From NCBI RefSeq assembly GCF_003334305.1, contig NZ_QOWS01000031.1: a DNA stretch of 37,766 nt; one strand, 5' to 3'. The stretch comes from Escherichia coli (GTDB lineage: Bacteria; Pseudomonadota; Gammaproteobacteria; Enterobacterales; Enterobacteriaceae). Shown piece by piece: positions 37,437 to 37,766 of the stretch. Position numbers and translations under genes: made by a program. How positions within the stretch are numbered: the stretch's first letter is position 1; the number at the start of each line of letters is the position of its first letter. Under the pieces are notes generated by a model. That model was not told the DNA's origin and searched no databases. It saw nothing but the letters and a program-made list of their open reading frames with translations.

Positions 37437-37766
37437 TTAACGCACATTGTGAATTTTCAGTCCTTTCCATTCAAACGTGAAATCAATAAGTTCATCAGGG
37501 ACATCGCAAACAATATGAATACGGATTTCTTCTCTGCCGTGACTCTTTTCACAAATTGCGTAACTGTCATGCTCTGGATTATTTAATTCTTTCAGCGGAA
37601 ATTTTTCCTCAAAGGCTTTATTTAGCCACCCCTGGTTTCCTTTCACCGCGAATAAATAATCACCTCCCTGTTTTTGTATCTTCTCTGCTATATCTTTCTG
37701 GCAACCCATCGCATCAGTTGTGATGATTTTTCCTTTAATATCCAGCATGTTAAGAAGTTCTGGGAT
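37437..37766 (-). mobile_element. ydcC: 3' portion of an ISAs1-family (H-repeat-associated) transposase gene; 5' end beyond window edge
   Basis: Reading frame stays open to the window edge; C-terminal sequence ...[31 protein letters not shown]... is characteristic of ISAs1/H-repeat transposases. Confidence 0.65.

Follow-up and report, generated by a model that had tools for sequence, protein, structure and literature searches.

At the end of the 37,766-nucleotide stretch of Escherichia coli DNA analyzed here (the window), a reading frame resembling a transposase runs into the last base, a short distance upstream of pptA and on the same strand. The arrangement raises the question of whether the frame belongs to a mobile element merely cut by the end of the sequence or to one already broken in the chromosome, and, with it, where the variable island stops and whether pptA is transcribed under its influence. 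We identified the feature as very probably a non-functional, end-deleted remnant of an ISAs1-family element (H-repeat), located at the pptA-proximal end of the yncG-pptA rhs locus, the RhsE locus of K-12.

The minus-strand frame was open over 109 codons between the window edge (37766) and a TAA codon at 37439-37437, with exactly 32 bp (37405-37436) separating this stop from the start of pptA. Both observations agree with the original prediction for this DNA, which had described a frame at 37437-37766 that runs off the window and has its 3' end 32 bp from the pptA start on the same strand. The following features were delineated in the region:

37177-37404, minus strand: pptA, which encodes a tautomerase PptA of 75 aa in this DNA and starts with ATG at 37404; on this side of the rhs locus, the core genes begin with it.
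37405-37436, minus strand: spacer of 32 bp between the stop of the fused ORF and the pptA ATG, holding the pptA Shine-Dalgarno sequence AAGGAG (37417-37412).
37437-37454, minus strand: five foreign codons (IHNVR) and TAA, formerly flank upstream of pptA, which close the fused frame.
37454-37456: deletion junction and boundary between island and core, from the K-12 alignment; base 37455 can be assigned to neither side.
37456-37766, minus strand: pseudogene fragment from the interior of an ISAs1-family (H-repeat, ydcC-type) transposase gene, from profile matches and alignment to ydcC and A7; its frame goes on beyond the window edge at 37766.

The 3' end of pptA (37177-37190, minus strand) differed from that of K-12, the gene being 228 bp (75 aa) here vs 234 bp (77 aa) there; a 1-bp insertion near this end brings the stop forward, so that pptA and the convergent yddH do not share the 4 bp by which they overlap in K-12. 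The gene yddE was intact in the window (34597-35490), whereas its BL21-Gold(DE3) counterpart (L007 7698-8591) is annotated as a pseudogene containing an internal stop.

The fragment matched the NCBIfam ISAs1 equivalog NF033564 with 107.6 bits (E=6.9e-31), above the curated cut-off of 70 bits, and Pfam DDE_Tnp_1 (PF01609) with E=5e-6, and it shared ~97% DNA identity with K-12 ydcC. The predicted membership of the ISAs1/H-repeat family was thereby borne out. The NF033564 match was limited to profile positions 127-232 of 314 and the PF01609 match to model positions 66-122 of 200. In full-length K-12 YdcC (378 aa), the DDE_Tnp_1-associated domain PF13808 was identified at residues 9-94 and PF01609 at residues 102-343 (model positions 3-200). 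The fragment at 37456-37766 corresponds to codons 155-258 of the 378-codon K-12 gene, including the ITTDAMGCQ block of the DDE domain; it thus codes for the central part of the catalytic domain and not for the C-terminus. What had been read as a typical transposase C-terminus is mid-protein sequence fused to the flank codons IHNVR. The transposase had also been called truncated, which holds insofar as the frame is cut by the window edge, but the gene has in addition truly lost its 3' third in a deletion of ~413 bp. A complete DDE catalytic domain (PF01609 end to end) is not present in the window copy, codons 259-378 being deleted. Judging from domain coverage and from the features of the family, the lost C-terminal third of this domain would hold the conserved HWHVEN block with the catalytic glutamate. 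A search of solved-structure sequences with full YdcC, aimed at the catalytic residues, returned chance matches to CheY alone (E ~1).

The extent of the loss was obtained from a three-way alignment of the window, E. coli K-12 (L002), and 13KWH46 (L001), in which K-12 positions L002 12590-13002 (412-413 bp) were missing from the window. The ydcC element of K-12 occupies L002 11673-12963 and spans 1291 bp between the terminal inverted repeats CAGGGAAAGATCATCAGAA and TTTCGTAATCTTGCCCTG; this is the unit length of an H-repeat. The 1291-bp element has lost its final 374 bp, comprising codons 259-378 (120 aa) and the right inverted repeat, and the deletion also took 39 bp of flank; the remnant measures 916 bp vs the 1291 bp of a full unit, with 311 bp of the remnant within the window. 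The codons IHNVR and the TAA were collinear with K-12 L002 13003-13020, which is non-coding in K-12. No right inverted repeat was found in the whole window with up to 3 mismatches allowed. The remnant does not carry inverted repeats at both ends, the right one being deleted and the left one present only beyond the window, in A7; one of its ends is deleted together with its flank, and the other abuts Rhs-derived or H-repeat-derived sequence.

The alignment with K-12 also relocates the core/accessory junction, which had been expected beyond the window, to 37454-37456, inside the interval that the prediction itself had assigned to the transposase. The 39-bp flank upstream of pptA was also identified in K-12 and in strains 4314 and 2015C-4136CT1, the latter two having no adjacent ISAs1; being common to genomes that lack the neighboring element, it is ancestral chromosome, and the state in the window is derived. 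The point at which megablast homology ends in ISAs1-less genomes, at 37454, was considered as an independent boundary and rejected, as the alignment showed it to reflect the query's own deletion. In these genomes (L005 8054-8230 and L006 8029-8229), the tail of the island carried a type I toxin gene of the SymE family together with small hypothetical ORFs, and further in, the island of strain 4314 carried xerC and a DNA primase gene. When the ends of the deletion were checked against the K-12 sequence, no convincing microhomology was found. As the deletion starts inside the element and not at its tip, it probably arose by illegitimate recombination and not through transposase action in the form of an adjacent deletion.

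All 37766/37766 bases of the window were identical to E. coli A7 (NZ_CP028767.1 2346204-2383969, reverse complement), in which the remnant could be followed past the edge; A7 is one genome identical to the window, and other genomes may differ beyond 37766. In A7, the remnant spans window-equivalent positions 37456-38371, extending 605 bp past the edge to an intact left inverted repeat. The coding sequence of the PF13808 region is present, with 94% amino acid identity to YdcC residues 1-258 (14 differences); codon 18 is a TAA nonsense codon, after which the frame stays open for 240 codons, and one base is deleted shortly before the ATG. Past the remnant, the gene order is dsORF-h1, the Rhs core gene, vgrG, yncH, yncG, and ansP. 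The Rhs core gene (4254 bp) is annotated without frameshift or internal stop, vgrG matched TIGR03361 (E=1.5e-188), and an NCBIfam scan of dsORF-h1 gave no family match. In A7, 13KWH46, BL21, and K-12 alike, the H-repeat lies distal to the Rhs core gene and its downstream ORF. Three expectations about the sequence beyond 37766 can be judged from A7: the link to an Rhs element was correct, with dsORF-h1, the Rhs core gene, and vgrG following the remnant; internal stops relative to intact copies do occur, at codon 18; and of the full transposase and inverted repeats looked for there, the left repeat is intact, but the right repeat and the C-terminal codons are deleted.

The 40-mer containing the codon-18 TAA (A7 L003 13757-13796, window-equivalent ~38156-38195) had perfect (100%) matches in 2684 genomes, with as many as 5 loci in one genome, so an H-repeat lineage with this nonsense codon is widespread. 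Divergence from K-12 was greater in the 5' part of the A7 remnant than in its 3' part, a contrast that hints at a mosaic or at gene conversion between copies. Just outside the left repeat, at A7 L003 13973-14015, we identified a short fragment like the 5' start of an Rhs core ORF, ATGAGCGGAAAACCGGCGGCGCGGCAGGGCGACATGACCCG, i.e., MSGKPAARQGDMT; the neighbor of the left repeat in K-12 and BL21 is instead the 3' end of a yncI-type H-repeat copy.

Of 5426 complete E. coli genomes, 1110 (~20%) contained the 40-mer spanning the junction (42 exact matches and 1068 with one mismatch), and 2297 contained the K-12-type intact right end with its flank. BL21 had the same deletion junction as the window, one flank SNP apart. 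RefSeq annotates an 'ISAs1 family transposase' pseudogene missing its C-terminus in A7, 13KWH46, and BL21, that is, in all 3 deletion-type annotations inspected. With an identical junction in A7 and BL21 and a near-identical 40-mer in 1110 genomes, the allele would go back to a single old deletion event, and the combination of a shared junction with different island interiors suggests that this deletion was followed by recombination within the island. In 13KWH46, which is 100% identical to the window over 36400-37766, the remnant is further split by an IS10-type element (ISVsa5 family transposase; L001 10430-11756), 63 bp past the window end, so the sequence beyond the edge differs among near-identical genomes. 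Three matches of the junction 40-mer were counted as lying on plasmids. The 298,830-bp record NZ_CP159530.1, much smaller than the chromosomes that matched alongside it, carries yddH, pptA, and the deleted ISAs1 remnant (match at 211530-212396); it may be one of these three or a chromosomal fragment with a wrong label.

The feature is already known, as an ordinary pseudogene annotated by RefSeq at a well-described variable locus. The rhs locus 6 of Jackson et al. (2009; PMC2935791) is bounded by yncG and pptA, with pptA as its downstream boundary at ~1.5268 Mb, and the region b1455-b1461 is described as the RhsE region holding rhsE (PMC3032704), where H-rpt is listed as an insertion sequence though its transposition has not been observed. 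The locus analyzed here has the same flanking genes as the published one and the same components (vgrG, Rhs core gene, downstream ORF, and H-repeat), whereas the window includes only the last 311 bp of the island, and island content varies, as with the SymE tails of 4314 and 2015C-4136CT1. Matches from gSELEX near ydcD/ydcC fall on the other side of the element.

The closest known relative is ydcC of K-12 (b1460), the H-repeat of RhsE, labeled 'ISAs1-like element ISEc5 family transposase' in RefSeq. The 2 copies occupy the orthologous site directly upstream of pptA on the same strand, have the same left inverted repeat, and share ~95-97% DNA identity over 917 bp. In contrast, the K-12 element is complete, at 1291 bp with both repeats, and its 378-aa ORF lies 99 bp from pptA, whereas the window copy is without the last 374 bp and the 39 bp of flank and ends 32 bp from pptA. 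The BL21 (E. coli B) pseudogene ECBD_RS11300, annotated 'missing C-terminus', has the same junction next to pptA as the window copy, but its remnant is without the codon-18 stop of A7; further, the BL21 island has a different Rhs tip, with a core of the RhsE type, ydcD, and an additional H-repeat copy resembling yncI, whereas that of A7 contains dsORF-h1, an intact Rhs core gene, and vgrG, with no second copy.

These comparisons point to the following course of events. A single deletion of ~413 bp would have set in after codon 258 of the transposase gene, taken out the rest of the element with its right inverted repeat, and extended over the first 39 bp of the chromosomal flank. The central part of the DDE domain would thereby have been joined to five codons of flank and a stop codon, 32 bp upstream of pptA. 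The product would be a remnant that makes no transposase, cannot be transposed, and decays neutrally. With the C-terminal third of the DDE domain and the right repeat lost, and with the nonsense codon 18 in A7, the remnant should be neither a source nor a substrate of transposase, and it is probably biologically inert. Against inertness stand the 240 codons left open after the stop in A7 and the absence of that nonsense codon from BL21. Codon differences between the remnant and K-12 (19 synonymous and 14 non-synonymous) were not numerous enough to reveal relaxed constraint. No observation speaks against the structural account.

Two other readings of the structure were weighed against this one. 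A full-length and possibly active ISAs1 transposase, with its real C-terminus in the window and the remainder and both repeats beyond the edge, would fit the strong ISAs1 homology and the frame open to the window edge, but the profile match covers only 127-232 of 314 positions, the copy has lost 120 C-terminal codons and the right repeat, A7 has the nonsense codon 18, and RefSeq annotates a pseudogene in A7, 13KWH46, and BL21; this reading is very improbable and was refuted by the alignment to K-12 ydcC. It is hardly conceivable that the arrangement in the window is ancestral and that K-12 gained the extra 413 bp: apart from the formal symmetry of any insertion/deletion difference, which speaks for it, the extra segment is the contiguous rest of the transposase gene with its terminal repeat, completing the 1291-bp element, and it includes the 39 bp common to genomes without an adjacent ISAs1. 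No single insertion supplies both the remainder of the element and this flank, which contradicts a gain in K-12.

A further reading, compatible with the pseudogene account, concerns the fate of pptA. In the deletion allele, pptA may have been co-opted, with transcripts that read through from the remnant or the Rhs side, or that start at a promoter made at the junction, and this would give a natural expression polymorphism. We consider this unlikely, though several observations are in keeping with it. Remnant and gene lie on the same strand with a gap of 32 bp, a consensus scan found no minus-strand terminator-like site between them, and there is no stable hairpin, the predicted RNA fold of the junction being less stable than that of shuffled sequence (z=+1.39). 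Moreover, the deletion allele is common, occurring in 1110 genomes, and the deletion brought an IS fragment to 50 bp from the pptA ATG while removing 39 bp of ancestral upstream DNA. These 39 bp are conserved in genomes with other island variants and could therefore have held native pptA promoter elements. On the other hand, promoter-like sites at the window end were at chance level (2 found vs 1.5 expected, from a consensus scan against shuffles, as in the K-12 equivalent), and just one of them was close to pptA; it overlaps the start codon of the gene and occurs in K-12 as well. The deletion spared the Shine-Dalgarno sequence along with 50 bp of upstream DNA, so that a short native pptA promoter could have come through intact. 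A search of the literature on ydcC, pptA, and H-rpt returned locus definitions and no pptA promoter or expression data. Read-through from the remnant into pptA is not supported by these sequence comparisons, and we regard it as improbable; that the deletion allele (~20% of complete E. coli genomes, including BL21) has rewired pptA transcription, through read-through from the H-repeat remnant or Rhs tip or through a promoter created at the junction, appears quite improbable. In the whole window, an Rfam scan returned nothing at the gathering threshold except the SECIS element in fdnG (22414-22472, minus strand; RF01989, 84.3 bits), as expected for formate dehydrogenase-N.

Under the preferred reading of an inert H-repeat remnant, the boundary of the variable Rhs island is placed at 37454-37456, within a base or two, and the ISAs1 copy at this boundary cannot move. 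The value of the finding lies mainly in correct annotation. The case also illustrates that a frame running off a window can mask a real internal deletion in addition to the cut made by the window. Loss of the 39 bp upstream may alter pptA expression in deletion-type strains such as BL21. If transcription of pptA were indeed rewired in these strains, a small tautomerase gene would be coupled to a T6SS-associated toxin island, resulting in an expression polymorphism at the strain level.
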